Positions 12,727 to 55,048 of a stretch of 64,000 nt of DNA are shown one piece after another. Made by a program: the position numbers and the translations under genes. Position 1 is the first letter of the stretch; every line of letters begins with the position of its first letter. A model generated the notes under the pieces. It was not told the origin of the DNA and made no database searches. It worked only from the letters and a program-made list of their open reading frames with translations. This stretch comes from Candidatus Cloacimonadales bacterium (GTDB lineage Bacteria; Cloacimonadota; Cloacimonadia; Cloacimonadales; JAIOQZ01): assembly GCA_963665815.1 (NCBI GenBank), contig OY762463.1, forward strand, positions 3,168,001 through 3,232,000, in the 5' to 3' direction.

Positions 12727-13397
12727 TATTTGATGTATTAACGCTTTTCCCCGGAATGTTTACTTCTTTTCTTAAAGAAAGTATAGTGGGAAACGCTGTT
12801 GAATCTGAGGCAATTGAAGTCTATCTGACTGATATTCGAGATTTCTCAGGAAATAAACACAGAAAGGTTGATGACTATCCTTTTGGTGGCGGTGCCGGTA
12901 TGGTTATGAAACCGGAGCCCATTTACGGAGCTTTACAAAATCTTGAAGCTGACAGGGAAACACCTGTGATTTACTTCACACCTCAAGGTAGATTGCTGAA
13001 TCAGCAAATCATTAACGAATATTCCACAAAAGAAAGAATTGTGATAATCTGTGGTCATTATAAAGATATTGACCAAAGAATAAGAGATAATTGTGTTACA
13101 GATGAGATTTCCATAGGGGATTACGTGATTTCAGGCGGTGAACTTCCTGCAATGATTTTTATTGATGCTATTGCAAGACTTCAGGAAGGCGTGTTGAATG
13201 ACATTGATTCTGCTAAAGGAGATTCTCACTGGAACGGACTTCTCGGTACACCTCAGTATACCAGACCGCTTGAATTCAACGGTTGGAAAGTACCTGATGT
13301 TCTGCTTTCGGGGCATCATAAAAATATTGAGAAGTGGAGAAGTGAAAAATCTCTTGAATTAACCAGAAAAATAAGACCGGATTTACTAAATGAATAA
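12723..13397 (+). CDS. trmD: tRNA (guanine37-N1)-methyltransferase
   Basis: VDDYPFGGGAGMVM, SIGDYVISGGE, QYTRP, LLSGHH. Confidence 0.97.
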   Translation: MIFDVLTLFPGMFTSFLKESIVGNAVESEAIEVYLTDIRDFSGNKHRKVDDYPFGGGAGMVMKPEPIYGALQNLEADRETPVIYFTPQGRLLNQQIINEYSTKERIVIICGHYKDIDQRIRDNCVTDEISIGDYVISGGELPAMIFIDAIARLQEGVLNDIDSAKGDSHWNGLLGTPQYTRPLEFNGWKVPDVLLSGHHKNIEKWRSEKSLELTRKIRPDLLNE

Positions 13398-13944
13398 ATT
13401 ATATGTCGGACTCGTACACTATCCTGTAGTTAATAAATTCGGTGATGTAGTTACTACATCTATAACAAACTTGGATATTCACGATATTGCACGATCCTGT
13501 ATGACTTTTGGAGTGAAAAAACTCTTTATAATAAACAGGCTTGAGTCTCAAAAAGAGCTTTTTACGAGAATTAAAAAGTTCTGGGATTCTGATATTGCCA
13601 GAAAATACAATCAGGACAGGGTTACTGCATTTTCTGTGCTGAACTACGAATTTACAATAGATGATGCCGTGAAAACGATAATTACTCAGGAAGGAGTTGA
13701 TCCCGTAATCGTTACTACAACTGCTGCTCGAAGAGAAGATCAGATCTCTATCAAACAACTTAATGATCTGGTCGAAAATAAACCAATTTTATTATTGTTC
13801 GGAACCGCTAATGGATTAACCGAAGATTCACATAATAATGCTGATTATATTTTACTCCCGATAGATGGTGCTTCTAAATATAACCATTTGTCTGTGAGGA
13901 GTGCGGCGGCAATTGTATTGGATAGGATTTCTTCCGAAAAATAA
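13390..13944 (+). CDS. SPOUT-type RNA methyltransferase (trmD-associated family)
   Basis: [32 protein letters not shown]. Confidence 0.85.
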
Positions 13945-13955
13945 AGGAGGAACTG

Positions 13956-14303
13956 ATGGATATTGTTCAAGTAATTGGTAAAAACCAAATGCGTAAAGAC
14001 TTACCTGAATTCAGAGTCGGTGACACTGCTAAGGTTCACTACAAAATTAAAGAAGGTGCTAAGCAGAGAATTCAAGTATTTCAAGGTATTGTTATACAAA
14101 GAAGAGGTGCAGGAATCTCCAAAACCTTTACTGTAAGAAAAATCAGTAATGGTATTGCAGTTGAAAGAATTTTCCCGCTCCACTCACCAAACATTGATAA
14201 AATTGAAGTAGTTCGTTATGGACACGTACGTCGTGCAAAACTTTTCTATCTCAGAAGAGTAAAAGGAAAAGCTGCACGTGTAAAAGAAAAGAAACGTTAT
14301 TAA
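13956..14303 (+). CDS. rplS: 50S ribosomal protein L19
   Basis: [33 protein letters not shown]. Confidence 0.98.
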
Positions 14304-40400: not shown

Positions 40401-40889
40401 ACAGACAGAAGAGGAAATCCCATGGCTTTTATAACCCTTGAAGACACTGCAGGTAAATTCGAAGTATCTTTGTTTAAGAGCGATTATGAGAGGTTCTTTC
40501 ATGTAATGCAGGAAGGGGCTGAACTGTTTATAGTAGGAGCGAAATCCACTTATGGTAATGGTGATGATTCATTCCTGAGAGTGTTGCCGTCCACAGTTGT
40601 TACGGGTCAGAATGTCGAACATTTATCCGGAAGCATGGATATTGAACTGAGTAAAGAATATTGTATTGACAATGTCAATAAAAACTTAGCACTGGATTTT
40701 GAAAGGACTATGAAGGAGAGTCCCGGAAAAATAAAGCTGAATTTGATTATAAATACTGATAAATACGGTAAGTTGAAGCTCTGCAAGGGAAAATACTCTA
40801 TCTTTCCTTCTCACAAAGTGTTCAGCAATCTCAATCTAAGTATTGTTAACAGTCCTAAAATACAACTGACAATAGAAGAATCCGAGTAA
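37428..40889 (+). CDS. dnaE: DNA polymerase III alpha subunit
   Basis: HLHNHTQYSLLDG, TDHGN, GRGSAAGS, PDIDIDF, FNKSHAACY. Confidence 0.98.
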   Translation: MAFVHLHNHTQYSLLDGACRVDKMVNLAKEYDMPAVAMTDHGNMFGTIDFYNKANKAGIKPIIGMEAYIVNDDLEDPKSKTNPRHHLVLLVKNLQGYKNLMKLSSIAYTKGFYYRPRISKKVLEEHHEGLICLSACLAGEIPSLLLKKKYDEAEEVIAWYKKLFPDAYYIELMNHGLEEEVAVLPELVKIAEKTNTPMVVTNDCHYLKRADAKAHEVLLCIQTGKSLADPDRMTFESHELYFKTEQEMRDLFPNMDSAFENTVKIAEQVEFDLPYKDFLFPKTDLPEGFTDPYLYLRHLCDEGIKQKYGEETKEIRDRLDFELDVIHQMGYVGYFLIVKDFIDAARDREIPVGPGRGSAAGSIVAYLLDITRLDPLKYGLLFERFLDLKRVGMPDIDIDFCAEGRGEVIDYVVEKYGRQSVSQIVTFGTLGAKSVIKDVARVLDVAPAEANRITKLMPSGPKVTLAKALKEAPEFAEYMAGNEIYKSILEYSMVLEGLIRQIGIHAAGVVIGPGDLSDYAPVAISSQKDGPPAVLVQYEGKWLDDLKMLKMDFLGLKTLTVIKRAIQLVKDGKNIDIDIDNVDLTDQKAYELLSMGMTDGIFQFESAGMKKYLKELKPTCFDDIIAMVALYRPGPIQFIPNYINRKHGIEPIEYDHELTKAALEETYGVTVYQEQVMRISKEMSGFTSAEAGQLRKAISKKKEDLMNKMHIKFADGAVKNGVTRETADKIWKDWEGFANYAFNKSHAACYAFIAFQTAYLKAHYPVEFMAALLTMENDPAKIPYFLDECKNMGIRVIPPNVNESFREFSVKDGAILFGLRGIKNVGSAAIAEIIRERDADGKFTSIFQFCERLDTMIVNKTVVESLIFAGATDELEGNRAQQYASIEDAQNNASVVQAEKNSDQINLFDAFHSDNKEEKSYDYKLPDVNNWTIREKLEHERSVLGFYISGHPLQQHKHIMDYYCNCNSVDFKEKNVRLIKILGLVSEVKTKTDRRGNPMAFITLEDTAGKFEVSLFKSDYERFFHVMQEGAELFIVGAKSTYGNGDDSFLRVLPSTVVTGQNVEHLSGSMDIELSKEYCIDNVNKNLALDFERTMKESPGKIKLNLIINTDKYGKLKLCKGKYSIFPSHKVFSNLNLSIVNSPKIQLTIEESE

Positions 40890-42046
40890 TGAAAATATTG
40901 ATGTTGCTGGTTATACTGTTAGTTAGTATATCTCTATGGTCGGCAGTTGATTACATGGTAGAAACAGTAGGAGAGGAATCGCTTGTATATTTGAGTATAC
41001 CATACTCATTTTTCAATTTCAGACACAAAAGCGGAAAGTTTATGACAGACTCAAGCGTTGAAATCAGTATATATGATAAAAAGAAAAAACTGAAATTTAC
41101 TGAAACTTTACAGGTACGGTTGCATTTAAATAACAGGCTGGAAATTAATAAGAAGAAGTATCCATATTTATGTATAACAGATCTTAAGAAAGGTCAGTAT
41201 TTGATAAAATTGAAAGTAATATCAGTAAATTATGATAAGGAGATAAGGATTCATATCCGCAACAGTAAAGACAGTCATGATTCAAGTTCTCTTTATGTGT
41301 TCTGTTATTCGGGTGATTCCATATATGAGCCTGTAGATGGCATTCAGGACGCAGATTCTGTTATCGTCAGGCATTACAGCTCTATCAGAGATGCTTCTTT
41401 AAGCATTATCAATACTGATCAAAAAAGTAAATATATGAAAGAAAAAAAGTATTTTCTTTACAAAACCGGAATGAAAACAGAAGAAAAGGATTTAAAGAAC
41501 GGTTTTATATATAGCGTGAAGAAACAAGAAGATAAGACTTTGCATTACAAGGTGAATACTGTTGCTTACAGGTTTAGAAGATCTCATACGGAAACTGAAC
41601 AGATAGAGCAGTTAATGATTATCGAACGAGGTGCATTGATTCGCAGGATGAATAAACTGAAATCAGAGGAACTTGAAGCGGCACTGGACAGTTACTGGAT
41701 TCAGACTGACAGAACTATTGGAGACAATGTAAATGAGTATCAACTAGCCTTTTATAATGCTGTTAAGTTATGTAACGAGAAATTTTCAGTTTTCGGTTAT
41801 AAAATGGGTTGGGATTCAGATATGGGAAGAGTTTTTCTTGAGTATGGCCAGCCGGATGAGATTGTAGAAGAAGCATACCCGAGATATGAGGATTATAAGG
41901 ATTTTTTTACGGATAGTGTTCTGGATTCTTTTTACAGGGCTGTAAAAGACTTCAGCAGCATACAGATATGGTTTTATTATCAAAAAAATAAAGTGTTTTT
42001 ATTTATAGAAAAATATGGAGCGAATAATTATGAATTACAAAATTAA
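40889..42046 (+). CDS. GWxTD-domain exported protein 1
   Basis: Signal peptide; GWDSDMGRVFLEYGQPD, IWFY. Confidence 0.8.
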   Translation: MKILMLLVILLVSISLWSAVDYMVETVGEESLVYLSIPYSFFNFRHKSGKFMTDSSVEISIYDKKKKLKFTETLQVRLHLNNRLEINKKKYPYLCITDLKKGQYLIKLKVISVNYDKEIRIHIRNSKDSHDSSSLYVFCYSGDSIYEPVDGIQDADSVIVRHYSSIRDASLSIINTDQKSKYMKEKKYFLYKTGMKTEEKDLKNGFIYSVKKQEDKTLHYKVNTVAYRFRRSHTETEQIEQLMIIERGALIRRMNKLKSEELEAALDSYWIQTDRTIGDNVNEYQLAFYNAVKLCNEKFSVFGYKMGWDSDMGRVFLEYGQPDEIVEEAYPRYEDYKDFFTDSVLDSFYRAVKDFSSIQIWFYYQKNKVFLFIEKYGANNYELQN

Positions 42047-43442
42047 AATTGTGCTGCAGATTCTGTCTGCTGTAATTCTGCTTAATGTATGTGGGCTTGT
42101 GCATGCAGAGCAGATGAACGCAATTGTTGAGGAAAATGTGTTTCTCAATGAAAATGGTATTACAAAATACGAATTAGCGTATTCTGTACCTTATAATCAA
42201 ATGATGTTCTTCAAAAATACTGTTGAAGGCGGTGGAAGTATTTATACAGCTAATCTTGTTGTGTCATTGACTCTTGTATTGAATGGTCAGGAGCATCTTA
42301 TAGAATCAACAGAAAAAGTCGTGAATACCAGATTTGAGGAAAACACAAAGAAAAAAGACTATTATTACACTGACAAAGTGTCCCTTGACGTAAAAGCTGA
42401 TGGGTTGAACATAAGACTTACAATAGCTGATTTTGCAATAGGGAATGAATACAATTGGGAAGGCACTACAAAGTTGTTTGCTCTGACTGAAGATAATTTT
42501 TTAAGTGATCTTGAATTTTCTGATAATGTAATGCCTTATAAAATTGGAATGCCGGAAAAACTCGGAAGAGGTGATACTGTATATGTAGTTAATCCTACTC
42601 ACATGTTTACTGAAGATTATAAAGTTCATTTGTATTATGAGTATTATGGTGAGTCTAATGGTGGTGATTTTGAGGAAGAGATTACTGTAACGAGAAACGG
42701 TCAGGAAGAAGTTCTGGCAACATTTGAAAATCACTCGGATAAAATGGTAAACATCAGGCATTTTCCTATGATCATTGAAGCTGGACAGTTTGAAGATGGT
42801 GTTGCAAACTATGATGTTAAAGTAAAAGTTACTAATAAGAAGACCGGAAAAGTATCCGAAAAGATGGAAAAAATTGTAATTGCTAAAATGATTGTAAATT
42901 CTATCAGATTCTTCCAGAATATAGATGATGAGATAAAGCTGATAAACTATTTCGCAGACAGAAAGGATACAGCTAAATGGGAAAATCTCACTAAAGAAGG
43001 TAAGCTGAAGCAGATAGAGTTATTCTGGAGAAAGTTTGATAAAACTTTCATTGATGAGCTTAAGAAAAGAATCAATACTGCTAATCTGAGATTCAGGAAT
43101 TTTCAGGATGGCTGGAAGACTGATCAGGGAAGGATTTACATAAAATTCGGTGAGCCTGATCAACAGGAAAGGGGAGATACAATAAAAGCCCTGAACAGTG
43201 GAAATACTGATTCGGGAGACCTTGACGCTTATTCAGATATACTTATTACAAACAGAACATATGAAAGGTGGGTATACATGCAGGGCGGAGTCAATGCTGT
43301 ATATCTTTTTATTGAAACGAACTCAAATGGTGTATTTAAGCTGATGTATGGTAATAACGAAAAGGATACATCTGAAAATATTGAGAGAAATTGGAGAAAA
43401 TATTTTGGTGATAATTTTGATGAAGCAGAACTGAGATATTAA
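42030..43442 (+). CDS. GWxTD-domain exported protein 2
   Basis: Signal peptide; GWKTDQGRIYIKFGEPD, RWVY; start may be 42015. Confidence 0.82.
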   Translation: MNYKIKIVLQILSAVILLNVCGLVHAEQMNAIVEENVFLNENGITKYELAYSVPYNQMMFFKNTVEGGGSIYTANLVVSLTLVLNGQEHLIESTEKVVNTRFEENTKKKDYYYTDKVSLDVKADGLNIRLTIADFAIGNEYNWEGTTKLFALTEDNFLSDLEFSDNVMPYKIGMPEKLGRGDTVYVVNPTHMFTEDYKVHLYYEYYGESNGGDFEEEITVTRNGQEEVLATFENHSDKMVNIRHFPMIIEAGQFEDGVANYDVKVKVTNKKTGKVSEKMEKIVIAKMIVNSIRFFQNIDDEIKLINYFADRKDTAKWENLTKEGKLKQIELFWRKFDKTFIDELKKRINTANLRFRNFQDGWKTDQGRIYIKFGEPDQQERGDTIKALNSGNTDSGDLDAYSDILITNRTYERWVYMQGGVNAVYLFIETNSNGVFKLMYGNNEKDTSENIERNWRKYFGDNFDEAELRY

Positions 43443-43842: not shown

Positions 43843-43935
43843 ACTCAAAAAAAATAACTTGACTTAACAGTGTCAAATCATAAAACTTAGATTAGATTAA
43901 ATTGAATTTTTATAACCTTTGGAGGTAATATAATT

Positions 43936-45066
43936 ATGAAAAAAACGCTCTTGATTTTTGTTGTCTTGCTTTTGCTGGCGACGTTAAATGGCGTCCCATT
44001 TACTTCTATGGGGGGATTTAACATTCCTTCAGCAAGAGTATTACCACATAAAATGATGGAAGTATCCGTCATTGGCTCAGGTGGTCAGGGAATTAATGGA
44101 ATCGAAAGAGACAGTACTGCTTCTGGTCAAATAGTTTTTGATGCAGAACAGTATGACTTCACTTATGCAAGCATGATTAATTTTGGTTTGTTTGACAGGG
44201 CTGAAGTCGCATTAATATATGATGCAAACCAGGAAATACTGGGTAACTTCAAAATTCAGCTTTTCAATGAGACAGAAGCCCGACCAGCAATTGCATTCGG
44301 TATCAATAATCTTTTTTCTCCAATCAAGGATTTCAGGGATTGGAATGACGAAGAAATGATTGATGAAGAGTACTGGGTAGTTGATCCTTCCGGGAAATAT
44401 TCATACACTCATCCTGGCGATACCCTTGCAACTCATTATTCAATCAATGATGACTATCAGTATCAGGATATTGATGATTACATTGAGAATTCATGGTATT
44501 TTGTAATCAGTAAATCTGTTGTATGGGCAGATGTACCATTTTTACAAAACTTTGGTATTGATTACCTTGAATCAGTAATGCACCTTGGACTTGGTCAGGG
44601 AAAATTTGTTGGGAACGTTGATTTCTCCAAAAAATTTAACGGACTGTTCGGTGGTATTGAAGCAAAAGTATCAGATCTTGCATCTGTTTTTGCTGAAATT
44701 GATGGTCACAATATCAATGTTGGTGGAAGCCTTTCCATTAAGAAGTGGACTGTTAGTGCAGGTATGTACAGACTTGAGGAGATTTTCAATGATGTTGAAA
44801 GCGATCCGAAATTTGCATTAAGTGTGAAATATGCAATCGATGCATGGTCTGAATTAAAGTACAATGAAAGAAATGCTGTTGAAAGTACTCCAGGTACATC
44901 ATCAGTTCCTTCTGGAAGACGTACAGTAAGACAAGGTAAAAAGGAAGTTCAGGAACAATCCGGAGATAATCCGCTTTTACAGGAACTTGAAGCTATCAGA
45001 GCTAAACGTAAAGAAGCAGAAAAAGAATTGGAAGCAATTAAGAGTTTATTAGAAGAAGAAGAATAG
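43936..45066 (+). CDS. Probable outer-membrane beta-barrel protein (YjbH-like) with coiled-coil tail
   Basis: Signal peptide; GGFNIPSARVL, FGLFDRAEVA, PAIAFG, LFGGIE, AEIDG alternating-strand pattern. Confidence 0.65.
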   Translation: MKKTLLIFVVLLLLATLNGVPFTSMGGFNIPSARVLPHKMMEVSVIGSGGQGINGIERDSTASGQIVFDAEQYDFTYASMINFGLFDRAEVALIYDANQEILGNFKIQLFNETEARPAIAFGINNLFSPIKDFRDWNDEEMIDEEYWVVDPSGKYSYTHPGDTLATHYSINDDYQYQDIDDYIENSWYFVISKSVVWADVPFLQNFGIDYLESVMHLGLGQGKFVGNVDFSKKFNGLFGGIEAKVSDLASVFAEIDGHNINVGGSLSIKKWTVSAGMYRLEEIFNDVESDPKFALSVKYAIDAWSELKYNERNAVESTPGTSSVPSGRRTVRQGKKEVQEQSGDNPLLQELEAIRAKRKEAEKELEAIKSLLEEEE

Positions 45067-45067
45067 T

Positions 45068-47095
45068 ATGAAAATTAAATCAGTTTTCTTGTGTCTTTTT
45101 ATATTATTATCTGCAATGAATATGGCAGCTCAACAGGAGCAGTCTTTTGAAGCAGGTATCGTGAATGAGCTCAGCGGGGAGATTGATGAACTCGGTCGAC
45201 TTGCTGAAAAGAAAGAGGTTGTAAAAAAACTTGCTGATAAAGGTGATCAGGCAACAATCTTGAGATTATTTAATTCAGATGCTGCTGTAGTTGATGAGGT
45301 GCTTGCACTTAAACAACTGAAACCAGTGCAGGATGAGTTGAATAGTATGGAAATTGTATATAGTGATGTTGATTTCCTCAAAGGATATCTAAATTACTAT
45401 GAAGCTAGAACTCAAATCCTGGAAGGCAGACTAACTCGAGCTCAATATTCACTTGAAGAATTTGTTGGAAATGCTTCAAATACAGATAAAAGAAAAGATG
45501 CAATTTACTGGCTGGAATATGTGTATTTCATGTCAGGTAATGACAGAGAACTGATTGCGCTGCATAAAAATCATTATAACTGGGCAGAAGATGAAAGTCA
45601 GAAATTCTGGCTCGGTAATGCTTATTACAATATATCCGATATTACAACCGCAGAGACAATATTTACATCATTGAAATCATCTCCTATTTATGGAGAAAAA
45701 GCTGATTTGATGTTGACTCTTATAGGTTACTCGGAATATGGATTGGAATATGCAATAGAAAAATTCCTGGAATATGTAAATGATAAAGGTGAAAGCGGAG
45801 CAAATATAGATTTTGTTTATTTATCACTTGGTCGTCTATATCAGGAACGTAATGATTTTGAAAAAGCAATATATTGCTACGATAAATACAGTGAATTAAC
45901 TAAAGATGAACCTTCAAATGAATTCTGGTATGAGCTTTTCCTTCTTGCTGTTAAAAACAAAAGATTTGATGAAGCTAAAAGATACCTTAAATATATAATT
46001 GATGGTCCAAGTACCGGAGATTATTTTAATTCTGCAAGTTATCTCTACGCCGTGATGTACCAGTTGATGGGTAATCTGGATAATGCTGATCAGGAAATTC
46101 AGACCGCTATAAAAGATGCTGAAAATATTTCAGAAATTTTAATAACCAAAGAGCGTTTAATGGATAAAATTAAAGTTCTGAAAGATAAGCATGCCCAGAC
46201 TGAAGACATGAATGAACGTAAAGAAATTGCAGAAAAACTTGAAAAATTCAATCAGGCTGCCAGAGGCTCTAGTGATATGCTGATAGATATCACTATGGGC
46301 ATTTCTGATGATGATATATTGAAACTTGCAATTCTTGAAGAAGAATATTTCAGTTACAACAGTACTATTAATGAAATGGAAAATATGATTCATGTATTGG
46401 AAACTACATCAAATAAGAAAATTCCGAAAGCCATGGATACATTGATAGATAATCTTGATGAAGATATTGTCAGATTTAAGACTATAAGAAGTCTTGCTAA
46501 TCTTGATAATTTTACTGTTGATGATTATCAGCTTTCATATGCAATTAATAGTGAAATTTACTATATGGAAAAGGTCGTTGATACATACAAGAGCCTTGAG
46601 AAATATGGTAAAAGAAAGAACAAAACAAGGCTTGTTACTTCAGCAAAGAAAAATCAGGAGTTACTCAATGATCTTAAAATATCGCTGGATGCAATACTTG
46701 TAAGTTCATTCGGAGATGTAGATTCTTCTGCATTGATTCAGCAGGTAATTACTGAGGAAATCAAAAGTGCAGAAGTATTGAAGGAAAACTATGCTTTAAC
46801 AAGAAAACTTGTTATTAAGAACTTCAATAAAGTACTCGCCAGAAGAGTTAAAAAAGAGAAGAATCTTCTTGATTCTGAAAATACAAAGATTTATGCGAAT
46901 TACTCAGATCGTATAAAGGCTTTCCAGAAAAGACTGAAAGAAATAGACCAAAGATACAATTTTACAAAATTAGATATTCTTTATGCAAGAGCTAAAGAAT
47001 ACGATGATGAGTTTAAGTTAATGCAGGAAGATTACAGAAATGCATCATCGGTTAATGAAAACATAGAAAATCCTGAATCAAAATCAGGCGAATAA
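45068..47095 (+). CDS. Exported TPR/coiled-coil protein (GltC/GltE-like by architecture)
   Basis: Signal peptide; TPR motifs (YLSLGRLYQERNDFEKAIYCY); helical C-terminal half. Confidence 0.75.
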   Translation: MKIKSVFLCLFILLSAMNMAAQQEQSFEAGIVNELSGEIDELGRLAEKKEVVKKLADKGDQATILRLFNSDAAVVDEVLALKQLKPVQDELNSMEIVYSDVDFLKGYLNYYEARTQILEGRLTRAQYSLEEFVGNASNTDKRKDAIYWLEYVYFMSGNDRELIALHKNHYNWAEDESQKFWLGNAYYNISDITTAETIFTSLKSSPIYGEKADLMLTLIGYSEYGLEYAIEKFLEYVNDKGESGANIDFVYLSLGRLYQERNDFEKAIYCYDKYSELTKDEPSNEFWYELFLLAVKNKRFDEAKRYLKYIIDGPSTGDYFNSASYLYAVMYQLMGNLDNADQEIQTAIKDAENISEILITKERLMDKIKVLKDKHAQTEDMNERKEIAEKLEKFNQAARGSSDMLIDITMGISDDDILKLAILEEEYFSYNSTINEMENMIHVLETTSNKKIPKAMDTLIDNLDEDIVRFKTIRSLANLDNFTVDDYQLSYAINSEIYYMEKVVDTYKSLEKYGKRKNKTRLVTSAKKNQELLNDLKISLDAILVSSFGDVDSSALIQQVITEEIKSAEVLKENYALTRKLVIKNFNKVLARRVKKEKNLLDSENTKIYANYSDRIKAFQKRLKEIDQRYNFTKLDILYARAKEYDDEFKLMQEDYRNASSVNENIENPESKSGE

Positions 47096-47115
47096 TTAAA
47101 CTAAAAGGCACATCA

Positions 47116-50100
47116 ATGGGAAAGAAAGTTAGTTATCTAATATTGTTCCTTTTCATCAGTAGTATTATACTGTCTTCAGTGACATCATATGAAGAATTAG
47201 CAAAGAGAAAAGAAAAAAATGATGCTTATAAGCGAGAGCTGTTCAGAAAAACCGAAAGTTTTATTAAAGACAACCCAGACTCTCCTGATCTCGCGTTTCT
47301 TTATTTTCAACTTGCAGAAATCAGTGCTCAGGTTGATGGGATAGATAACCCGTTAAAACCTGCAAAGCTTTACAGCAAAGTTCTTGAGATTGATCCTGAT
47401 TTTACTGATAAAGATGTTGTTTTATATCAAAAAGCTTTCTATCTGTTTCAAGCTGAATCACAAAGAGTTGATGAAGGTAGAACAAGAAATCTTTATACCG
47501 AGGGAATTGATGTTGAAAGCTGGCCTGATTCATTAAGATTAATAAAAGATAACGCAAGAATCAGTGAGGCAGTTGATGCTTATAATGAAGTATTCAAAAT
47601 GCCTAATTCTGATTTAAGAGATGATGCGATTTATCGACTTGGGAACATATATTACAACCTTGCACTGGATGCAAGATCTCCCTTGAAATATTATAAAACA
47701 GCTATATCGTATTTTGATTATCTTGCTCAAAAATCTGAAGACGAAAAGTACAAAGATTACGGATTGGCTTACAGAGCATGGGCTAAATTTGCCAGTGGTT
47801 TTTACGAAGAATCCATTGCTGATTTCACTCTAATCCTTGATAAGATTAGAAAAGAAGGAAACGAAAGGCTGAAGACTTACTTTGAAGTAGATGCTGTAGA
47901 AAATCTGGCATATTCATTTGTGGAATTTGATGGTGGAAATTATGAACAATATTCTATTGCTGCGGCAAAAGCCATTGAATTGTTCAATCAGATTGTAGAT
48001 GAAAAATATGGTAAGCAAATTTTGAACAAAGCTATTGAATACAAAAGGGATTTGAATTCACCTATGCAGGCAATGGATTTATATAATGCATACATTTCAA
48101 TTTATCCAATGTCGCCTGAGAATCCATCTATTATTGATTCTATCAGATTACTGTTGACCAGGAATCCTTCAAATTCGAGAGCTACCAGTGATAATGAGCT
48201 GGAAGAATTTATTATTAAAGAAAAAGTACGTCTGGTTGAGAATTACAATACAGATTCAGACTGGTATAAAACAAATGTAGATTCTGCAGGGGCAGATGTT
48301 ACTGCAGAACTGAAAATAATAAGAGAAGCTTACGAGTTTTTATTTAACAGGTATTACAATAATTTTTCTCAGGATCCTGAGTATGTAAAACTTGAAAAAT
48401 ATAAGGATCTCACAGATTCTTATGAAAAATTTCATCAGTTTAAAGATGAGAAATATGATAAGCATATTTATGATAATTATGTGAATTATGTTGAAGCTCT
48501 TTATATAATGGCGGGAATGAATAAGACTCCTGAAGAATTCCTTAAGGCTCGTGAAGCATTTATAAATCTTAATGAGAGATACCCTGAGAATGAGAATTAT
48601 TATGACAATGAATTCAGAATTTTCCTTTGTATTGATGAAATAAGAAATCAGGTAAAAGATTTGGATGAAACGGATGTTTCTGCTAACGAAGGTACTGATT
48701 CCACTGTAACCACAGGTATTTCAAGAAAAGATGCAGATTCAATGTATGTTGATGCTACTCTCAAATTCGAAAAGATCTTGAGAAACCCAAAATATGCAGA
48801 AATGGATAAAGAAAATCTGCTTCCTAAGTTAGTATATAACAGAGCAGAGATAAGATTCAAAAATGCTATTTTTGACTCTGCCTATGTTGACTATGAAAAA
48901 CTACTTGAACTTGAAATAAAAGATAATGTTAAGAAACGAGCTTATCTTCAACTCGCTGTTCTGAATGAAAAGAGAAACGATTTTGTTCTCTCCAGAGAGT
49001 ATTTTGAAAAAGCATTAGCACTTGCCGATAATGAAGATCAGGAAATGATCAGAACAAATATTGATGCATCAATTCAGAGTAATGCAAAGAAACTGAAAAC
49101 CGGTGGTGATCTGGTTCAATCTGCTGAAGGCTATCTTGAACTTGCTGACAGATATAAGGATAAGGACAAGAAAAAGAGCCGTGGATTTGTTGTTGAAGCA
49201 ATTAACACATACAAGCAAGTACCCGACTATCAAAAGGCTATTGATTTGTGGCTGAGTTTGACAGATGACCTTATTACTCCGAAACCTGTTGAAGAGAACA
49301 AAGTTGAAGTTCTTACATATTATAAAAATGCCTGGGATATTGCTGATTCTCTTATGACTGACCTTGAACAAGGTAAGGATTTGAGATATAGATTCATCGG
49401 ATTATATCCAAACAGTAATGAAGCTTATCAACTTCATATTGAGATTATTAAAATGTACGAAGAAGGCGCCTTTAAAAATATAGAAACTGCTGCAGAAATG
49501 TATATGGATTTATATGAGAAGTCTCGATCAATGGACTTAGGTACTGAGAAGAGAGAAGATTTGTATCTTCAATCTTTCAAGCTGTATAAAGAACTTGGTA
49601 ATGAGGATAAAGTCGTTGAGTTGAGCCTTGATTTTGAGAAGAAATATCCTGATCACCCTGCAGCAATGTCAATGCTTATCGAAGTTGCTAAAAAGTACAA
49701 AAATCAGAATAAAGAAGAGGAATTCAAGAGTCTGGCAAAATATATTCATAAGAAAGACCCGAATAACAATCTGCTAAGCAATATTGCAGCTTCTGAATTG
49801 AGAGAAATATACATGGAAGCTGACAGTTTATTCAAAACGAAAGATTTCGGTGCAATGAATGAAAAGATTTTCGAATACAAGAGGCTGGAAAGCAAGTATG
49901 AGAAAGAAAATCTTGATATTAAAGTTGATATTGTTCATGAAGATTTTGCTTACTGGAAAGATTACGTAAAATATTATGATAATTTTGACAAAACCTTTGA
50001 AAAAGTGAACAGTACATTCCTTGATCGAACTCCACAACAGTTATTGAAAGTGAATAACCTTACAAGATTCGGTAGGAACTTTAAAGGTCGTATAAAGAAA

Positions 50101-51462
50101 CTTAAGGAAAGTGCAGATAAAGCTTCTGAGGAATTGGCAAAGCTATTCGTAGACGGACGTAGTTATGAGATGAAACTTGAACAGGAAACTAAAATATTAT
50201 ACACAATTGGATATTGTTATGAGTATGCTTCTGAAGTTCTTGTAGGGCAGACACAAAAGTTTGCTGATGTTTCAATGGATGCAAATGAAGCAAAAAATAC
50301 CGGTGTCGGTCACTATAATGAGTTTAAGAAACTGCTTTTCGGTTATGTTAATCCATATAGACAGGAACTTTTGACTACTGCTGCCGGTCGTTATATGGAA
50401 TTATACGAGAATTACTATATGAACAAAGATTATAGAGATGACAACTATCAACACCCATATGACAAACTTGTTGAGTGGGGTGTAATGACTGATAAAGTTT
50501 ATGTTGATACTGATATAACTTCATGGAAGTCCAATGCAATTGATATGGGAGCTGATTTCGCAGTTTCTGCATTGAATTCTGATTGGTCAAATTCAGTTGT
50601 GACTGATACTGTTGATTCCAGAGGAACAAAATATCCACTTTGGACGCTTGAACCGGGATTTGTAAACTATTACAAGAATACACTGAACATTGAAATGATT
50701 CCTGAAATTGTTACATTTACCTATGTTGCAGCAAACAAGGCAGAAATATCAATTAACAATAATATTTTGAATGCTGAGCATGTTAAAAGTGATTCCATGA
50801 AAATTGATGGTGAAAACTATTATGTTTATCATGTTAAGACGCTAGATAACATTGCAACAGGTAATAATGCCTTTGTATTCAAGGCAGATCCAGCAAACAC
50901 GAATAAGTTTTCTGCAAAAGTGACAGCACAATATGATGCTGATAAACTTGAGTACTTCAGAACTACAGAAAAAAGATCTCTTGTCTCAGATTACACTTGG
51001 ATGACTAAAGAAGCTGACGAGATTGACCCGAATATTACTGAGATAGACTCAACTTGGTCTTTTGCAGGTCAGGATTTGTCAGTATTCTATAAAGTTAGTA
51101 TTGATGGCATGCAGGAAGGCGAATCTGATGCTATTGGTATCTGGGCTCCGAATCCTGATTCAACCAGAGTGTACTCAGTATATTTCTGGAAGAAAATCAA
51201 TATAGAAAGCGAATTTCTTGATGGGGAAATTAAGGTAGTTGGACATGAGTTTACTTCAATCTGGATAAATGGTCAGGAAATGTTATATGAATTCCCAATT
51301 GATCTTGATCCAATTATTAATAAAGTATACCCAAGCCCTGTGCTGCTTGATAGTTCTAACTTCGTTCAAGGTGAGAATATCATTCTTGTAAAAGTTACTA
51401 GTAATAGAAACTGGAAGACGCTTTACTTTGATATGCAGTATACAGTTAAAAAACCGGAGTAA
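47116..51462 (+). CDS. Very large exported TPR protein with C-terminal beta domains (GltD/AgmU-like by architecture)
   Basis: Signal peptide; many TPRs (AIYRLGNIYY, YISIYP, FEKKYP); 1448 aa. Confidence 0.75.
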   Translation: MGKKVSYLILFLFISSIILSSVTSYEELAKRKEKNDAYKRELFRKTESFIKDNPDSPDLAFLYFQLAEISAQVDGIDNPLKPAKLYSKVLEIDPDFTDKDVVLYQKAFYLFQAESQRVDEGRTRNLYTEGIDVESWPDSLRLIKDNARISEAVDAYNEVFKMPNSDLRDDAIYRLGNIYYNLALDARSPLKYYKTAISYFDYLAQKSEDEKYKDYGLAYRAWAKFASGFYEESIADFTLILDKIRKEGNERLKTYFEVDAVENLAYSFVEFDGGNYEQYSIAAAKAIELFNQIVDEKYGKQILNKAIEYKRDLNSPMQAMDLYNAYISIYPMSPENPSIIDSIRLLLTRNPSNSRATSDNELEEFIIKEKVRLVENYNTDSDWYKTNVDSAGADVTAELKIIREAYEFLFNRYYNNFSQDPEYVKLEKYKDLTDSYEKFHQFKDEKYDKHIYDNYVNYVEALYIMAGMNKTPEEFLKAREAFINLNERYPENENYYDNEFRIFLCIDEIRNQVKDLDETDVSANEGTDSTVTTGISRKDADSMYVDATLKFEKILRNPKYAEMDKENLLPKLVYNRAEIRFKNAIFDSAYVDYEKLLELEIKDNVKKRAYLQLAVLNEKRNDFVLSREYFEKALALADNEDQEMIRTNIDASIQSNAKKLKTGGDLVQSAEGYLELADRYKDKDKKKSRGFVVEAINTYKQVPDYQKAIDLWLSLTDDLITPKPVEENKVEVLTYYKNAWDIADSLMTDLEQGKDLRYRFIGLYPNSNEAYQLHIEIIKMYEEGAFKNIETAAEMYMDLYEKSRSMDLGTEKREDLYLQSFKLYKELGNEDKVVELSLDFEKKYPDHPAAMSMLIEVAKKYKNQNKEEEFKSLAKYIHKKDPNNNLLSNIAASELREIYMEADSLFKTKDFGAMNEKIFEYKRLESKYEKENLDIKVDIVHEDFAYWKDYVKYYDNFDKTFEKVNSTFLDRTPQQLLKVNNLTRFGRNFKGRIKKLKESADKASEELAKLFVDGRSYEMKLEQETKILYTIGYCYEYASEVLVGQTQKFADVSMDANEAKNTGVGHYNEFKKLLFGYVNPYRQELLTTAAGRYMELYENYYMNKDYRDDNYQHPYDKLVEWGVMTDKVYVDTDITSWKSNAIDMGADFAVSALNSDWSNSVVTDTVDSRGTKYPLWTLEPGFVNYYKNTLNIEMIPEIVTFTYVAANKAEISINNNILNAEHVKSDSMKIDGENYYVYHVKTLDNIATGNNAFVFKADPANTNKFSAKVTAQYDADKLEYFRTTEKRSLVSDYTWMTKEADEIDPNITEIDSTWSFAGQDLSVFYKVSIDGMQEGESDAIGIWAPNPDSTRVYSVYFWKKINIESEFLDGEIKVVGHEFTSIWINGQEMLYEFPIDLDPIINKVYPSPVLLDSSNFVQGENIILVKVTSNRNWKTLYFDMQYTVKKPE

Positions 51463-51467
51463 GATAA

Positions 51468-51719
51468 ATGAAAAGAATCACAATATTTATATTAATGATG
51501 TTTATGCTTGGCTTATATGCTCAGGAAAACAAGAAGAGCATCAAGGATAAATACAAAAACGTAGCAACTTTAAAGAGTAAGGAAGTCAAAGAAGTAAAAG
51601 TTGAAGATCTTAAACCGGATAATTCCGCATTACTAGGCAAAAAAGATTCTCCGAAAAAAGCTGGACTTAAAAGACATGCTATAGAGAATTTTAAGAAATC
51701 TAATAAATTATTATATTAA
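51468..51719 (+). CDS. Small exported Lys-rich protein (GltF-like position and size)
   Basis: Signal peptide ending LYA; 83 aa; tightly packed in the operon. Confidence 0.65.
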   Translation: MKRITIFILMMFMLGLYAQENKKSIKDKYKNVATLKSKEVKEVKVEDLKPDNSALLGKKDSPKKAGLKRHAIENFKKSNKLLY

Positions 51720-51737
51720 TAAAAACAGGAGGTCGAA

Positions 51738-52490
51738 ATGACACCTAAAGTCAAAAAGACTTTTTTCACCATTTTATTCATGGTTACCGGAGTATTAATG
51801 TTCGCTCAAAACGTTAAGGTTGATACAGATGAGTTTAGTCCAATTGCGTTGTTTATGGGCGCTATTGAGTGGATGGCTCCAATTGCTTTTCTCGGAGTAG
51901 TATCACTGGTTCTGTTTTTTGTGAAGTTTGGTATTCTTTATTTTAAAGAAAAACTTGATGCCGGAAAATTCTACCTTAAACTTAAAGGATTCATTAAAAA
52001 TGGTCAATACGATGAAGCGGTAAAAACATGTCAGCCACACAAAGACAAGATTCTTGGCTTCGTATTCTGGAATGGACTTCTTGCATTTAACGATGCTAAA
52101 AAAGCCGGAAAACAAGGTGTTGAACTTGAAGAATCACTCGCAAACGCTCTTAATGAAGCCGGTATGCAGAAAGCTCCACAAGTAACTGCAGGATTACACT
52201 GGTTTGACATTGTTGGACAGGTTGCTACACTTCTTGGACTTCTTGGTACAATCGCCGGTCTTATTGACGCGTTCTCAGCTCTTGCATCACTTGGTGAATC
52301 CGAACAGGGTGCAGCACTTACAGGTGGTATTGCTAAAGCGATGGGTACAACTGGTTTCGGACTTCTTGTTGCAATTCCAACTATGTTCTTCAAAGGTATC
52401 CTTGAAGGTCGAGCTACAACTATCGTCAGCAAAATTGATGAGTATAGTGTAAAAATAGTTAATGAGATTAGTAACTCAATTAAGAAATAA
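51738..52490 (+). CDS. MotA/TolQ/ExbB proton-channel protein (AglR-like)
   Basis: ATLLGLLGTIAGLIDAF, GIAKAMGTTGFGLLVAIP. Confidence 0.9.
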   Translation: MTPKVKKTFFTILFMVTGVLMFAQNVKVDTDEFSPIALFMGAIEWMAPIAFLGVVSLVLFFVKFGILYFKEKLDAGKFYLKLKGFIKNGQYDEAVKTCQPHKDKILGFVFWNGLLAFNDAKKAGKQGVELEESLANALNEAGMQKAPQVTAGLHWFDIVGQVATLLGLLGTIAGLIDAFSALASLGESEQGAALTGGIAKAMGTTGFGLLVAIPTMFFKGILEGRATTIVSKIDEYSVKIVNEISNSIKK

Positions 52491-52500
52491 GGAGCAATAG

Positions 52501-53028
52501 ATGTATCAGGGACCATCAAGTTCAAGGAAGATTGTTCGGGCTACAAGTAAAGACCTGAACCTGATTCCTATTATGAACTTGTTTATTACTATTATCCCAA
52601 TGCTGCTTGTTATAACGGTTACTGTAAAAATGGCTATGGTTGAGATACAAATGTCTGCAAATAATGCTCCACAAGGAAATGAAGAGCAAAAAGAAGAAGA
52701 TGATGAAGATAAAATTCAAACACTGAAACTGGCAATATTTGAAGACAGATTTGAGATAATTTACAATGACGATAACTCAAAGGTAAAGAAAATACCTGTT
52801 ATTGATCCTTCTGCGACCATTGTAACTCAACGTTATAATATGTTTGAACTGGATAAAGAGCTTGCAGAGTTTAAAAAGGATAATAAAGATCAGAATGAGA
52901 TCACTATTCTTGCTGCGGGAAATGTTAACTTTGATGCACTTATGGCATCTGTTGATGTCTGCAAAGTTAATGAGTTTCCTTCTATAAACTATGAATCTGC
53001 GGTTGAACTATTCATTCAAAAACAGTAA
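52501..53028 (+). CDS. ExbD/TolR-family protein 1 (AglQ-like position; Asn at the channel Asp site)
   Basis: DLNLIPIMNLFITIIPMLL TM; ITILAAGNVNFDALMASVD. Confidence 0.85.
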   Translation: MYQGPSSSRKIVRATSKDLNLIPIMNLFITIIPMLLVITVTVKMAMVEIQMSANNAPQGNEEQKEEDDEDKIQTLKLAIFEDRFEIIYNDDNSKVKKIPVIDPSATIVTQRYNMFELDKELAEFKKDNKDQNEITILAAGNVNFDALMASVDVCKVNEFPSINYESAVELFIQKQ

Positions 53029-53046
53029 GCAGCAAAGGAGAATGAA

Positions 53047-53568
53047 ATGAAAGCGGATAAATTTAAATCATCAAAAAGGCAGAGAATAAAAAGAAAAGAT
53101 TTGAATATCACATCTTTGATTGATATTCTTACTATCCTACTTGTTTTCCTGCTTAAAAATGTATCTATGGATGCAGCAAAAAACAAACCGCCCAAAAGTA
53201 TGCTTCTTCCTCCTACTGCAACAAATGAACAACTTATAGAAGATGGTCGAACAGTTGTTATTAAAGTATATCCTGATCAGATTCTGTATGGTATGGATGC
53301 TGTTTATGTTGGTTCTCTTGATGATCTTATGAATAATCCTTCTACAAGAAAAGCATTGGAAGGTCATTTACTTCTTGATAAAGAAAGTATTATTGACAAT
53401 GACAATAACGCTGTACCATGTATTCTACTACAGGTTGATAAAAGCGTTCAATGCTCTTACGTAACTGAATTATTTAAGGTCAGCGGGAAAGCTGGATACG
53501 TAAACATATATTTCTCAACACTCTATGAGTCAAATTTGGCTGATAAGTATAGAGGAAGTTCTTCGTAG
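53047..53568 (+). CDS. ExbD/TolR-family protein 2 (AglS-like)
   Basis: DLNITSLIDILTILLVFLLK TM with conserved Asp; ILLQVDKSV. Confidence 0.88.
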   Translation: MKADKFKSSKRQRIKRKDLNITSLIDILTILLVFLLKNVSMDAAKNKPPKSMLLPPTATNEQLIEDGRTVVIKVYPDQILYGMDAVYVGSLDDLMNNPSTRKALEGHLLLDKESIIDNDNNAVPCILLQVDKSVQCSYVTELFKVSGKAGYVNIYFSTLYESNLADKYRGSSS

Positions 53569-53576
53569 GTGAAATT

Positions 53577-55016
53577 ATGAGTGATAAAATATTATGGCTT
53601 GAGTTGGTTTATAAAGGAAAGATTCACAGTTATGTGAATTCAGGCAGGGACTTTAAGAATAATTTCTTAATTGGTTCCAGTGAGTACCTGTTTTGGCAAA
53701 TACTTGACAGGTCTTTTCCAAGTAAATTCAAACTTATAGAAAAGAAAGGTTCATCCTTTGTAATGAATCTTAGAAAAGGTATGGAACTCACCGTTATGAA
53801 AGGTGATGTGACATTGTCTCCTCAGGATCTCAAAGGTAAAAAGATGCTTCAGGGAAATTCTCTGATACTCAATGACACGGCTACAACGGGGATAATTAAA
53901 TTTTCCGGTGACTGGGAAATCCATTACTTTTTCAAGAAACCTTATACTGTTGTTTATACTCATACTGAAAAGCTGCTTATACGTCAGTACTCTAAACATG
54001 AAGGTCTCAGTGCAGAAAACAAAGTAACATTTGCATTCATGACCATTGCGTTCCTGATGTTAGGTGTTGTCACATTTGTAATGCATAAAAATTACGAACC
54101 ACCACAAGTAGCTAACACTTTCAGGGAGAAACTGGCACAAAAGCAAGCACACCTCATGAAGATGCAGCCTGAGATAAAAGAACAGAAAGTTGAGGAACCG
54201 GAAGAAGTTGCCAGCACAAGTGGATTTAAGAAAAAAGCTGAAACAGAAGAAGAAGCTGCAAAACAGGTTGAAGAAGGCGAAAAAAGTCTAGAAAAAGGTA
54301 TGCAGAATATTTTCGGTTCGGCAATGGACGATATAAAGGAAGATGCAGGTAATCTGGAAGATAATTCTGTAGATATGTCTCAGATGTTCAAGGTTACAAC
54401 ATCATCAGGTATTGTTACAACCGCTAAAGGTGCTAACTTGAGAAAAACCAAAAGCAGAGTTGATATTGCAAAGCAATTTGATGAGAAAGGTGGAGATTCC
54501 GGTTTAGACGGATCTACTGGACTTGATGAAATTCTTGCAGGACAATCTGTTTCCGGTGGAGATGGCTATAAAGTACTTAGCAGTGATGAAGTTGGCGAAG
54601 GTGCTGAAGAAATTGGATACGTTTCAATTAAAAGTACTGCCGAACTTGCAAGCATAAAAGGACGTTTTGCCGGTCTTAAAACTCTTGGAGTTGAAGGCGT
54701 AGGAATACAGGAAATGTCTGCTGAAGAAAAAACTGCGTCAGCTCGTATCGAAAAAGTTGTTGATGCATACAAGAGAAGACTTAACAGACTGTACAGAAAC
54801 GAAAGCAGAATTGCTGAAATGTACGGTACAATCAGGTTTGTGCTCTATATTAATAAAGATTCAGATATGGTGGAGATGGTTGAAATCTTCCCGGAATCTG
54901 GAAGCTTCTTTACACCTGAGTTCCTACAGAAAGCTGAAAAGCAGATTCTGACATGGAGAATAAGGGTTGAGCAGAATCGTAGATATGAAACAAGAATGAA
55001 ATTCTTGAAACAATAA
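53577..55016 (+). CDS. Bitopic energy transducer with TonB-C / AgmX-PglI-like C-terminus (GltG-like)
   Basis: About 150-aa N-domain, one TM, helical and Gly-rich linker, C-terminal IEKVVDAYKRRLNRLY..YGTIRFVLYI..ILTWRI. Confidence 0.7.
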   Translation: MSDKILWLELVYKGKIHSYVNSGRDFKNNFLIGSSEYLFWQILDRSFPSKFKLIEKKGSSFVMNLRKGMELTVMKGDVTLSPQDLKGKKMLQGNSLILNDTATTGIIKFSGDWEIHYFFKKPYTVVYTHTEKLLIRQYSKHEGLSAENKVTFAFMTIAFLMLGVVTFVMHKNYEPPQVANTFREKLAQKQAHLMKMQPEIKEQKVEEPEEVASTSGFKKKAETEEEAAKQVEEGEKSLEKGMQNIFGSAMDDIKEDAGNLEDNSVDMSQMFKVTTSSGIVTTAKGANLRKTKSRVDIAKQFDEKGGDSGLDGSTGLDEILAGQSVSGGDGYKVLSSDEVGEGAEEIGYVSIKSTAELASIKGRFAGLKTLGVEGVGIQEMSAEEKTASARIEKVVDAYKRRLNRLYRNESRIAEMYGTIRFVLYINKDSDMVEMVEIFPESGSFFTPEFLQKAEKQILTWRIRVEQNRRYETRMKFLKQ

Positions 55017-55026
55017 AACATTTATC

Positions 55027-55048
55027 AGCCCCGTAAGGGGCTTTTTTT
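55027..55048 (+). terminator. Terminator closing the TPR-TolQR operon
   Basis: AGCCCC-gtaa-GGGGCT followed by T6. Confidence 0.85.

Follow-up and report, generated by a model that had tools for sequence, protein, structure and literature searches.

What kind of machine is encoded by an operon in which motor genes of the TolQ/TolR type lie beside large tetratricopeptide repeat (TPR) proteins and an outer-membrane barrel, with no TonB-dependent receptor, TolB or Pal gene among them? The question is raised by a locus of a Candidatus Cloacimonadales bacterium, within a window of 64,000 nucleotides (GenBank assembly GCA_963665815.1, contig OY762463.1, positions 3,168,001 to 3,232,000 of the forward strand); "the window" means this whole stretch, and coordinates refer to it unless another source is named. 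Eight open reading frames (ORFs) lie co-directionally on its + strand at 43936-55016, with intergenic gaps of 1-20 nt, and we named their products P1 to P8 in gene order. A sequence-only reading had described a tightly packed unit encoding TolQ, two TolR/ExbD subunits and two TPR proteins among its eight genes, and had proposed a compact Glt-like proton-driven envelope motor. ORF calls confirmed the positions and strand of all eight genes. Pfam matches to MotA_ExbB, to ExbD (for both small proteins) and to TPR families agreed with the five assignments, and family annotation of the window revealed no TonB-dependent receptor, TolB or Pal gene in the cluster, as had been claimed. The proposal itself was supported by a tree of P5, by hhalign links to outside proteins, by the predicted fold of P8 and by gene order across the phylum. 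Judged from these comparisons of sequences and models, the cluster is very probably the form that the Agl-Glt core complex takes in Cloacimonadota, a machine that spans the envelope and is driven by protons.

In the accessible text of Luciano et al. (2011, PLoS Genet 7:e1002268, PMC3169522), the core complex comprises the Group B genes aglR, aglQ, aglS, gltC, gltD, gltE and gltG plus one extra gene. Its carriers there are Delta- and Gammaproteobacteria, one betaproteobacterium and Fibrobacter, and its function is given as unknown. The same text contains no occurrence of "Cloacimonas" and does not name the phylum Cloacimonadota. A 2020 preprint, in the part available, repeats the description and suggests that the core could serve secretion. 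In the literature we found no paper linking the Agl-Glt core to Cloacimonadota; the supplementary carrier tables of Luciano et al. may list more carriers.

The closest homologues of P5 and P8 have source names of Candidatus Cloacimonetes or Cloacimonadota, in line with the earlier view that this is a probable Cloacimonadota genome. A word-indexed search with a P5 alignment stayed within this group, its best 120 matches all being Cloacimonadota-type, and was uninformative on outside relatives. A HMMER search with a P5 family profile returned 18,634 proteins at E ≤ 0.001 and 111 at E ≤ 1e-30. Among these matches, about ten Cloacimonadota-type proteins (192-363 bits) were followed by a group mostly of 200-240 aa at 115-173 bits, whose named members come from a Myxococcales metagenome-assembled genome (MAG) and Deltaproteobacteria MAGs. 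An alignment of 30 such P5-like proteins was used to pull 80 loci outside the phylum (L066-L145) from named genomes. Their hosts are Myxococcota (including Nannocystis bainbridge and Anaeromyxobacter terrae), Bdellovibrionota, Fibrobacterota, KSB1, Caldithrix, Nitrospirota, Gemmatimonadaceae, Gammaproteobacteria and Thermodesulfobacteriota. The outside loci were searched with hidden Markov models (HMMs) built from Cloacimonadota sequences only, and many of them are cut by contig ends.

P5 (250 aa; 51738-52490, +) is a predicted AglR-type proton channel subunit of the TolQ/ExbB family (PF01618, 82 bits). In NCBIfam the top match is tolQ, which at 66 bits falls far short of the 221-bit cut-off. 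This match speaks for a divergent Tol-Pal system, in which a TolQ, two TolR, a TolA-like protein and CpoB/YbgF-like TPR proteins would serve outer-membrane attachment and cell division. The Pfam matches to MotA_ExbB and ExbD would also suit a second TonB-ExbBD system, energising TonB-dependent receptors for nutrient uptake. With the P5-family HMM, outside relatives scored 115-173 bits, against 66 for Escherichia coli TolQ, 78 for the ExbB of the same genome and 50 for E. coli ExbB. Among the paralogues of five outside genomes, those with P6/P7-like neighbours reached 118-159 bits and all others 37-87.

A tree of 113 TolQ/ExbB/MotA-family rows pointed the same way. It held 19 Cloacimonadota rows, 67 from the outside loci and 22 paralogues from the five outside genomes; the remaining rows were E. 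coli TolQ and ExbB and the ExbB, MotA and MotA-like proteins of the host genome itself. Every Cloacimonadota row (19, P5 among them) and every outside-locus row (67) fell into one clade of 88 rows with a support of 100 in the Shimodaira-Hasegawa-like approximate likelihood ratio test (SH-aLRT). Two Fibrobacter paralogues flanked by P6/P7-like genes complete this Agl-type clade, which covers Myxococcota, Bdellovibrionota, Fibrobacterota, KSB1, Gammaproteobacteria and others. E. coli TolQ and ExbB, the host's own ExbB and 20 of the 22 paralogues lie outside it. The Cloacimonadota rows form a 19-row clade of their own (support 100) on a long stem (1.56). In this quick tree of rows chosen by likeness, P5 thus belongs with AglR-type subunits and stands outside the canonical Tol and Exb proteins. 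The grouping weighs against a Tol-Pal origin, since P5 is separated from E. coli TolQ and from TolQ-like paralogues of other genomes, and against a second TonB system, since the host's ExbB is excluded from the clade that holds P5.

Two contigs labelled Enterobacteriaceae and Sulfitobacter (L088 and L097) carry motor genes that nest in Myxococcota-type and Bdellovibrionota clades; the MAG labels or the binning may be wrong. A Fibrobacter genome has a second Agl-type locus (L169/L172) with two tandem TolQ-like genes, of which the 426-aa product matches both the P5 and the P6 profiles, and its sequence suggests a TolQ-TolR fusion.

Two distinct TolR/ExbD-like genes directly follow the P5 gene, as expected of AglQ and AglS. 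P6 (175 aa; 52501-53028, +) matches PF02472 at 33 bits and P7 (173 aa; 53047-53568, +) at 40 bits. Each belongs to a family of its own, and members of both were found again in 71/80 outside loci. They differ at the membrane aspartate: the PIMNLF motif of P6 aligns with the TolR D23 / ExbD D25 site and places Asn there in 19/19 Cloacimonadota sequences, whilst the P7-type protein keeps Asp in all 19 and in 72/72 outside sequences. P6-type proteins outside the phylum are mixed, with Asn in 37, Asp in 31 and another residue in 7, and those of Bdellovibrionota have Asp in 17 of 18 sequences. Loci that also carry P3- or P8-like (GltD/GltG-like) genes showed 30 Asn and 6 Asp; lone motor triads, mainly from Bdellovibrionota, showed 25 Asp and 7 Asn. 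These counts describe a pattern and are not a statistical test, the relatives not being independent. In one locus of an uncultured Fibrobacter sp. (L096), a STAS-domain gene (11118-11492 of that locus) lies between the two TolR-like genes.

P8 (479 aa; 53577-55016, +) had been read as a bitopic protein with a TonB-C-like end, and most of the evidence on it had to come from structure and profiles. Like P1 and P4, it gave no meaningful Pfam or NCBIfam match even at E ≤ 10, and PF03544 (TonB_C) was absent at that threshold. A sequence search of the PDB with P8 returned chance antibody matches only, and a word-indexed search with P8 alone gave three matches, probably because it was swamped by low-complexity words. 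The AlphaFold model, built from a 20-sequence alignment, has a mean predicted local distance difference test score (pLDDT) of 66.5; residues 1-170 and 380-479 reach about 75-92 and residues 196-353 are disordered. The best Foldseek rows were FHA domains and TonB C-domains, with weak whole-chain E-values. Aligned with VIA-align, residues 1-123 matched FHA domains at Z 6.5-8.1 (for example 2aff, 90 residues, root-mean-square deviation 2.9), and residues ~380-479 matched TonB/TolA C-domains at Z 5.5-6.5 over ~80-97 residues, including 6sly, 9ddz (83/83 residues), 1u07, 4g7x (Z 6.1) and 2x9a (Z 5.9). The notes of the tool class such Z values as middling; both sets of matches are coherent, each spanning a whole domain. 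P8 is therefore predicted to consist of a cytoplasmic FHA-like domain (1-123) at a membrane helix (~146-172), a disordered linker and a periplasmic TonB-C-like domain (~380-479). The predicted TonB/TolA-type fold bears out the earlier reading of its end, and the FHA-like N-terminal domain adds a likeness to GltG. That protein, in the accessible text of PMC11761067, has two FHA domains, one of them at the membrane helix, followed by a long disordered periplasmic stretch and a TonB-C-like domain.

Profile comparisons extended the likeness over the whole chain. The P8 family aligned with outside GltG-like proteins end to end by hhalign (99.75%, E 2.6e-27, 405 columns). Of the outside P8-like proteins, 15/16 matched NF033760 (gliding_GltG) at E 1e-16 to 4e-62, all below the 650-bit equivalog cut-off; the match began at HMM position ~180 to 555, and at ~180-270 in 11 of the 15. 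The C-domain model NF033768 (AgmX/PglI) was matched above cut-off by 15/16, and Pfam TonB_C by 5/10. In the ESM Atlas, Myxococcota and Bdellovibrionota FHA/TonB_C clusters are listed right after P8's own cluster, which we take as a lead only. These results bear on both alternatives named above. The TolA-type matches (4g7x, 2x9a) are as expected of a Tol-Pal transducer, whilst the full-length homology to GltG-like proteins and the FHA-like domain, which TolA lacks, are not. The TonB-C-like fold would suit a TonB protein, against which stands the missing PF03544 match.

In the Fibrobacter locus L096, a Wza-like gene with Poly_export and SLBB domains (12989-13984 of that locus) overlaps the end of the GltG-like gene, an arrangement that fits a polymer-related role for that locus.

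The remaining core features lie upstream of the motor genes. P3 (1448 aa; 47116-51462, +) is, like P2, a predicted periplasmic TPR scaffold, and the family profile aligned with outside P3-like proteins by hhalign at 100% (E 2e-47, 882 columns) over P3 residues 41-1116, which we read as GltD-like; the rest (~1117-1448) appears to be a lineage-specific, beta-rich C-terminal part. A P3 HMM of Cloacimonadota sequences only matched the 1273-aa protein in the gltD position of A. terrae at 3e-12. No NCBIfam GltD model matched any of the sequences, so the GltD label rests on position and size, as a TPR scaffold of the ~1000-1300-aa class encoded before the motor genes. P2 (675 aa; 45068-47095, +) is a predicted exported TPR protein with a long helical C-terminal half, encoded before the GltD-like gene as gltC is. 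Besides its TPR matches it has a weak YbgF-like stretch, another point in favour of Tol-Pal. By hhalign, P2 matched GltC-like proteins at 99.5% (E 4.7e-23, 277 columns) and GltE-like proteins far more poorly (87.5%, E 3.6e-6). The GltC-like alignment was led by a GltC of 730 bits on NF033756, above cut-off, which the Cloacimonadota P2 HMM itself matched at 1e-3 only. That P3 and P2 match GltD- and GltC-position proteins argues against Tol-Pal. When the final 349 residues of P3 and the final 305 of P2 were compared with Pfam, no family rose above chance level, and the ESM Atlas placed P3 among large TPR clusters without taxa.

P2 and P3 do not remain separate throughout the phylum. Among 18 phylum loci sampled, nine (L047, L050, L051, L057-L062) have no separate P2 gene, and their P3 homologue is 1739-2149 aa long. 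The extra residues stand right behind the signal peptide in all four of the loci checked, and one of these four long ORFs also matches P2 (9e-27). The long proteins are thus likely, by sequence, to be fusions of the GltC-like and GltD-like parts.

Gene order in the outside loci tied these components together. The P5-P6-P7 triad was found in 71/80 loci, with a P8-like gene right after it in 37 and a P3-like gene before it in 38, and order and strand were constant across the loci with P3-, P5-P7- and P8-like genes. The triad stands alone in Bdellovibrionota (P8-like gene in 0/19) and Anaeromyxobacter loci; aglRQS also lie apart from the glt genes in Myxococcus xanthus. In a Myxococcales locus the gene before the P3-like gene matches NF033756 (GltC) at 3e-15, and in an outside locus the TPR gene after the P3-like gene matches NF033758 (GltE) at 1e-20. 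An anchor is provided by a cluster of A. terrae, which encodes on one strand a TIGR04565 barrel, GltC (the 730-bit protein above), the 1273-aa TPR protein (3e-169 with the outside P3 profile), CglF (91 aa), GltG (854 bits, passing the equivalog cut-off) and CglE. The order in the window (barrel, GltC-like, GltD-like, small protein, motor, GltG-like) is collinear with it, with the motor genes inserted before the GltG-like gene. Similar barrel-headed forms lacking GltE occur in KSB1, Fibrobacterota, Gemmatimonadota and Calditrichota.

We then considered how the operon is distributed in Cloacimonadota. P8 was found in 169 of 232 phylum genomes (about 72%) and in 116 of the 151 high-quality ones; the first 1100 residues of P3 gave nearly the same result (168/232 and 116/151). 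The 18 phylum loci came from 18 genomes chosen by a P8 match, so that absence cannot show in this sample. All 18 carry P5, P6, P7, P8 and P3 in the window's order, in agreement with the earlier expectation that the gene set would be conserved together in related genomes. P1 is present in 16/18; of the two misses, one lies at a contig end, and the other shows no match in 4.9 kb of upstream sequence. A separate P2 gene stands in 8/18, one further locus being cut off, and P4 was detected by phmmer in 8/18.

The host genome, a single 3.96-Mb contig that is 98.7% complete, has four PF01618 loci: flagellar motAB among fli genes, an exbB cluster, a MotA-like/OmpA-like pair and the P1-P8 cluster. The exbB cluster is a canonical exbB-exbD-exbD-tonB set at 1.908 Mb with a TonB_C match of 66.5 bits. 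At least six TonB-dependent receptor genes occur elsewhere in the genome and might offer work to a second TonB system. That role is already provided for by the canonical cluster, and no receptor gene lies in or beside the P1-P8 cluster in the window or in the 18 phylum loci. Together with the position of P5 and the absence of PF03544 from P8, this makes a second TonB system an extremely improbable explanation.

Tol-Pal partners were also searched for. No TolB or Pal exceeded its cut-off in the host genome (best 122.7 bits against 343, and 71.5 against 125). TolB was above cut-off in 0/232 Cloacimonadota genomes, and any match at E ≤ 1e-30 was found in only 6. The finding has two sides. A genome with no TolB or Pal above cut-off, in a phylum without recognisable TolB, leaves room for a divergent Tol-Pal system; the same absence removes the partners by which such a system is known, and neither TolB, Pal nor a TolQ of the Tol clade is found for this cluster. 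We therefore consider it highly unlikely that the operon is Tol-Pal. Membership in that family is unlikely, whilst a Tol-like role is possible and is included among the outputs discussed below. Two tandem genes of ~400 aa at 3890203-3892118 of the host genome encode TolB-like beta-propeller repeats scoring 114-123 bits, well below the TolB cut-off. Elsewhere (1265001-1279000 of the genome, L007), the MotA-like/OmpA-like genes belong to a non-flagellar set, in which a gene for a 461-aa FliG_C-domain protein is followed by the MotA-like gene and the OmpA-domain gene. The set adjoins genes for a TPR-containing PorP/SprF-like barrel and for a protein of 1576 aa that bears a type IX secretion sorting domain.

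Several results weigh against assigning the cluster to the Agl-Glt core complex. None of the window's own proteins matches any Glt NCBIfam model directly, the link being made through intermediate sequences, and the Cloacimonadota P8 HMM reached the cut-off-passing GltG at E 3e-3 only. P8 has one FHA-like domain against two in GltG. In its alignment the residue after the invariant Gly is Ser, Lys or Thr, where canonical FHA domains have Arg. The tree was a "quick" search with SH-aLRT support only and no bootstraps, its outside rows had been selected for their similarity to P5, and they do not include M. xanthus AglR, the myxobacterial anchors being A. terrae and Nannocystis. P2 and P3 are TPR proteins, a class with repeat-inflated profile scores, which qualifies in particular the assignment of P2 to the GltC position. 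No third, smaller TPR gene of the GltE type lies between the GltD-like and motor genes, only the 83-aa P4 gene standing between P3 and P5. P8 was without a match in 63/232 phylum genomes, and the P8 and P3 searches missed the same families, with 0/9 genomes positive in f13 and 0/6 in f14; in f17 they found 1 or 2 of 21.

The missing gltE is shared by a KSB1 locus (L082). Measured against the strict seven-gene core, six features were found by sequence comparison and GltE was not, so that the cluster is a variant of the core complex. Two details of the sequence-only reading fell away. It had counted GltE and GltF in the core; this cluster has no GltE-like third TPR gene, and the accessible text of Luciano et al. 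(PMC3169522) confines gltF to Myxococcales and Bdellovibrionales.

The first and fourth genes lie outside the strict core. P1 (376 aa; 43936-45066, +) had been described as an outer-membrane barrel-like protein; it is invisible to Pfam and NCBIfam, and the predicted fold upheld the description. Its AlphaFold model (pLDDT 67.5) shows an exported protein with a 12-strand barrel (~41-301), a disordered linker (305-344) and a conserved, charged helix of ~30 residues (346-375). VIA-align over 48,161 chains gave Z 16.6 for 4rl8 (a COG4313 channel), 16.0 for KdgM and 15.9 for FapF, and Foldseek gave 59 matches at E ≤ 0.001, mostly outer-membrane barrels and porins among the matches listed. By hhalign, P1 is related to the genes in the same position of Gemmatimonadaceae, KSB1, Fibrobacter and one MAG (97.8%, E 8e-13), the helix included. 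A gene of ~270 aa before the GltC-like gene in Myxococcota and gammaproteobacterial loci was rejected as a P1 relative (hhalign 0.6%). NCBIfam scans with P1 gave no match to any myxobacterial barrel model. A complex prediction of mature P2 with the P1 tail (300-376) returned no answer (score 0.00) and so is no evidence either way. P4 (83 aa; 51468-51719, +) is a basic protein whose signal-like N-terminus suggests export. It sits where GltF/CglF lies in myxobacterial clusters, a likeness of position alone, and an ORF of 60-150 aa precedes the motor gene in 56/80 outside loci.

The boundaries of the operon were only partly as first described. A TTGACT hexamer at 43859-43864 (+), read directly, is present as a possible -35 element. 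Its role as the start of the unit is unproven, because a promoter-like scan of the region was at chance level (48 sites against 45.5 expected). GGAGG stands 10 nt 5' of the first ATG, that of the P1 gene. At the other end, the proposed terminator is present as an intrinsic-terminator-like stem-loop with a T run (55027-55048, +); the stem-loop with its T run at 55027-55042 is G+C-rich, 5 of its 6 pairs being G-C. Directly downstream, priA starts at 55049, and it lies downstream in 10/18 phylum loci. The upstream flank holds dnaE, two GWxTD genes and yraN (- strand) by Pfam/NCBIfam annotation. The two GWxTD-domain genes (40889-43442) precede the operon, and such genes also lie upstream in 12/18 phylum loci. 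GWxTD HMMs found no match in the 80 outside loci at E ≤ 1e-3, so these genes are phylum-level neighbours and not part of the conserved system.

The operon very probably works like the core complex, and a mechanism may be proposed on the pattern of the published Agl-Glt model and of the ExbBD-TonB and TolQRA systems. A pentamer of P5, enclosing a P6/P7 pair, would turn proton flow into movement and drive P8 by way of its membrane helix; the FHA-like domain would lie beneath the motor. The disordered stretch of P8 would cross the peptidoglycan, and its TonB-C domain would dock on the GltD-like P3 of the P3/P2 scaffold. P3 and the GltC-like P2, perhaps with P4, would in turn be tied to the outer-membrane barrel P1 through periplasmic tails. 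Energy of the inner membrane might thus become mechanical work at the outer membrane.

What this work achieves can be suggested with low confidence only. A gliding motor like the Myxococcus Agl-Glt machine is one candidate, as six components are homologous to Agl/Glt proteins and the cluster is collinear with a glt cluster of a myxobacterium in which GltC and GltG score above their NCBIfam cut-offs. Several points argue against it. In the accessible text of Luciano et al. (2011, PMC3169522), the core genes are insufficient for motility and occur where gliding is undocumented. The GltA, GltB, GltH and GltK barrels and lipoprotein, GltI, GltJ and CglB are absent from the eight ORFs and the flanks, the part of the genome that was searched for them. 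The genome has flagellar genes. One TolR-like subunit bears Asn, against mostly Asp in the lone triads, which come mostly from Bdellovibrionota and Anaeromyxobacter, and we take these to be gliding lineages. A working gliding motor is therefore very highly unlikely. We instead infer a housekeeping envelope task for this version of the core complex, because the operon is held by most of the phylum, its neighbours are replication genes (dnaE, priA), the cluster has no myxobacterial motility add-ons, flagellar genes are present in the same genome and the phylum has no recognisable TolB. Candidate tasks are to tether, hold, move or gate a complex in the outer membrane, or to handle a polymer at the cell surface.

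A wider proposition may be added tentatively, and taken jointly it has a small chance of being right. The barrel-headed form lacking GltE might be an old housekeeping machine and not a horizontally acquired offshoot of a proteobacterial invention. It might serve as the main proton-motive device for the outer membrane in phyla without Tol-Pal, such as Cloacimonadota, with an asymmetric stator in which only one TolR-like subunit binds protons. On this view the gliding and spore-coat machines of Myxococcus would have arisen late, by elaboration of a system for envelope maintenance.

Since 2011 the core complex has been recognised as a conserved nucleus from which two Myxococcus machines grew. New here is its presence in roughly three quarters of an anaerobic digester phylum that has no recognisable TolB. 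Related loci occur in at least eight named phyla, which argues for a system of far greater age and wider spread than would an invention of proteobacteria handed on to Fibrobacter. Two parts, the barrel partner in the outer membrane and the TolR-like subunit that bears Asn, offer handles for energy-coupling experiments. The gain is incremental in that the kind of system was already described.

Compared with known systems, the operon shares with Tol-Pal (ybgC-tolQRA-tolB-pal-cpoB in E. coli) a TolQ/TolR-type motor driven by the proton motive force, a bitopic transducer with a TolA/TonB-like C-domain and a TPR protein. It may work like Tol-Pal, because it has like parts in a phylum where no TolB reaches cut-off. 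It differs in that P5 lies outside the branch of E. coli TolQ, in its two unlike TolR-like subunits and FHA-like domain, and in having very large TPR scaffolds and an outer-membrane barrel where Tol-Pal has TolB and Pal. With the M. xanthus Agl-Glt machine and its paralogue, the Nfs spore-coat machine, it also has features in common. The motor is of the same type, GltD- and GltC-like TPR scaffolds are present and a small protein is encoded between the scaffold genes and gltG. The transducer follows the same plan of FHA domain, membrane helix, disordered stretch and TonB-C domain, as laid out in the accessible text of PMC11761067. The myxobacterial machines add the GltA/B/H barrels of TIGR04565 type, GltK, CglB, GltI and GltJ, the Group A components, as well as cytoplasmic links to MglA, AglZ and MreB, none of which is in this cluster.

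The closest counterpart is the core complex itself. The Cloacimonadota cluster differs from it in having no separate GltE-like gene, one FHA-like domain in its GltG-like protein, ~330 extra C-terminal residues in its GltD-like P3 and, as the first gene of the operon, one for an outer-membrane barrel that ends in a charged helix. The Asn-bearing TolR-like P6 is a further difference, although this trait is common to many core-type loci elsewhere. The two are alike in their arrangement: one TolQ-like and two TolR-like genes stand in a row, a GltG-like FHA/TonB-C transducer follows directly, and GltD-like and GltC-like TPR genes precede the motor genes, all on one strand. They are alike too in their company, as the clade of P5 spans the taxa named for the core complex, Delta- and Gammaproteobacteria and Fibrobacter.

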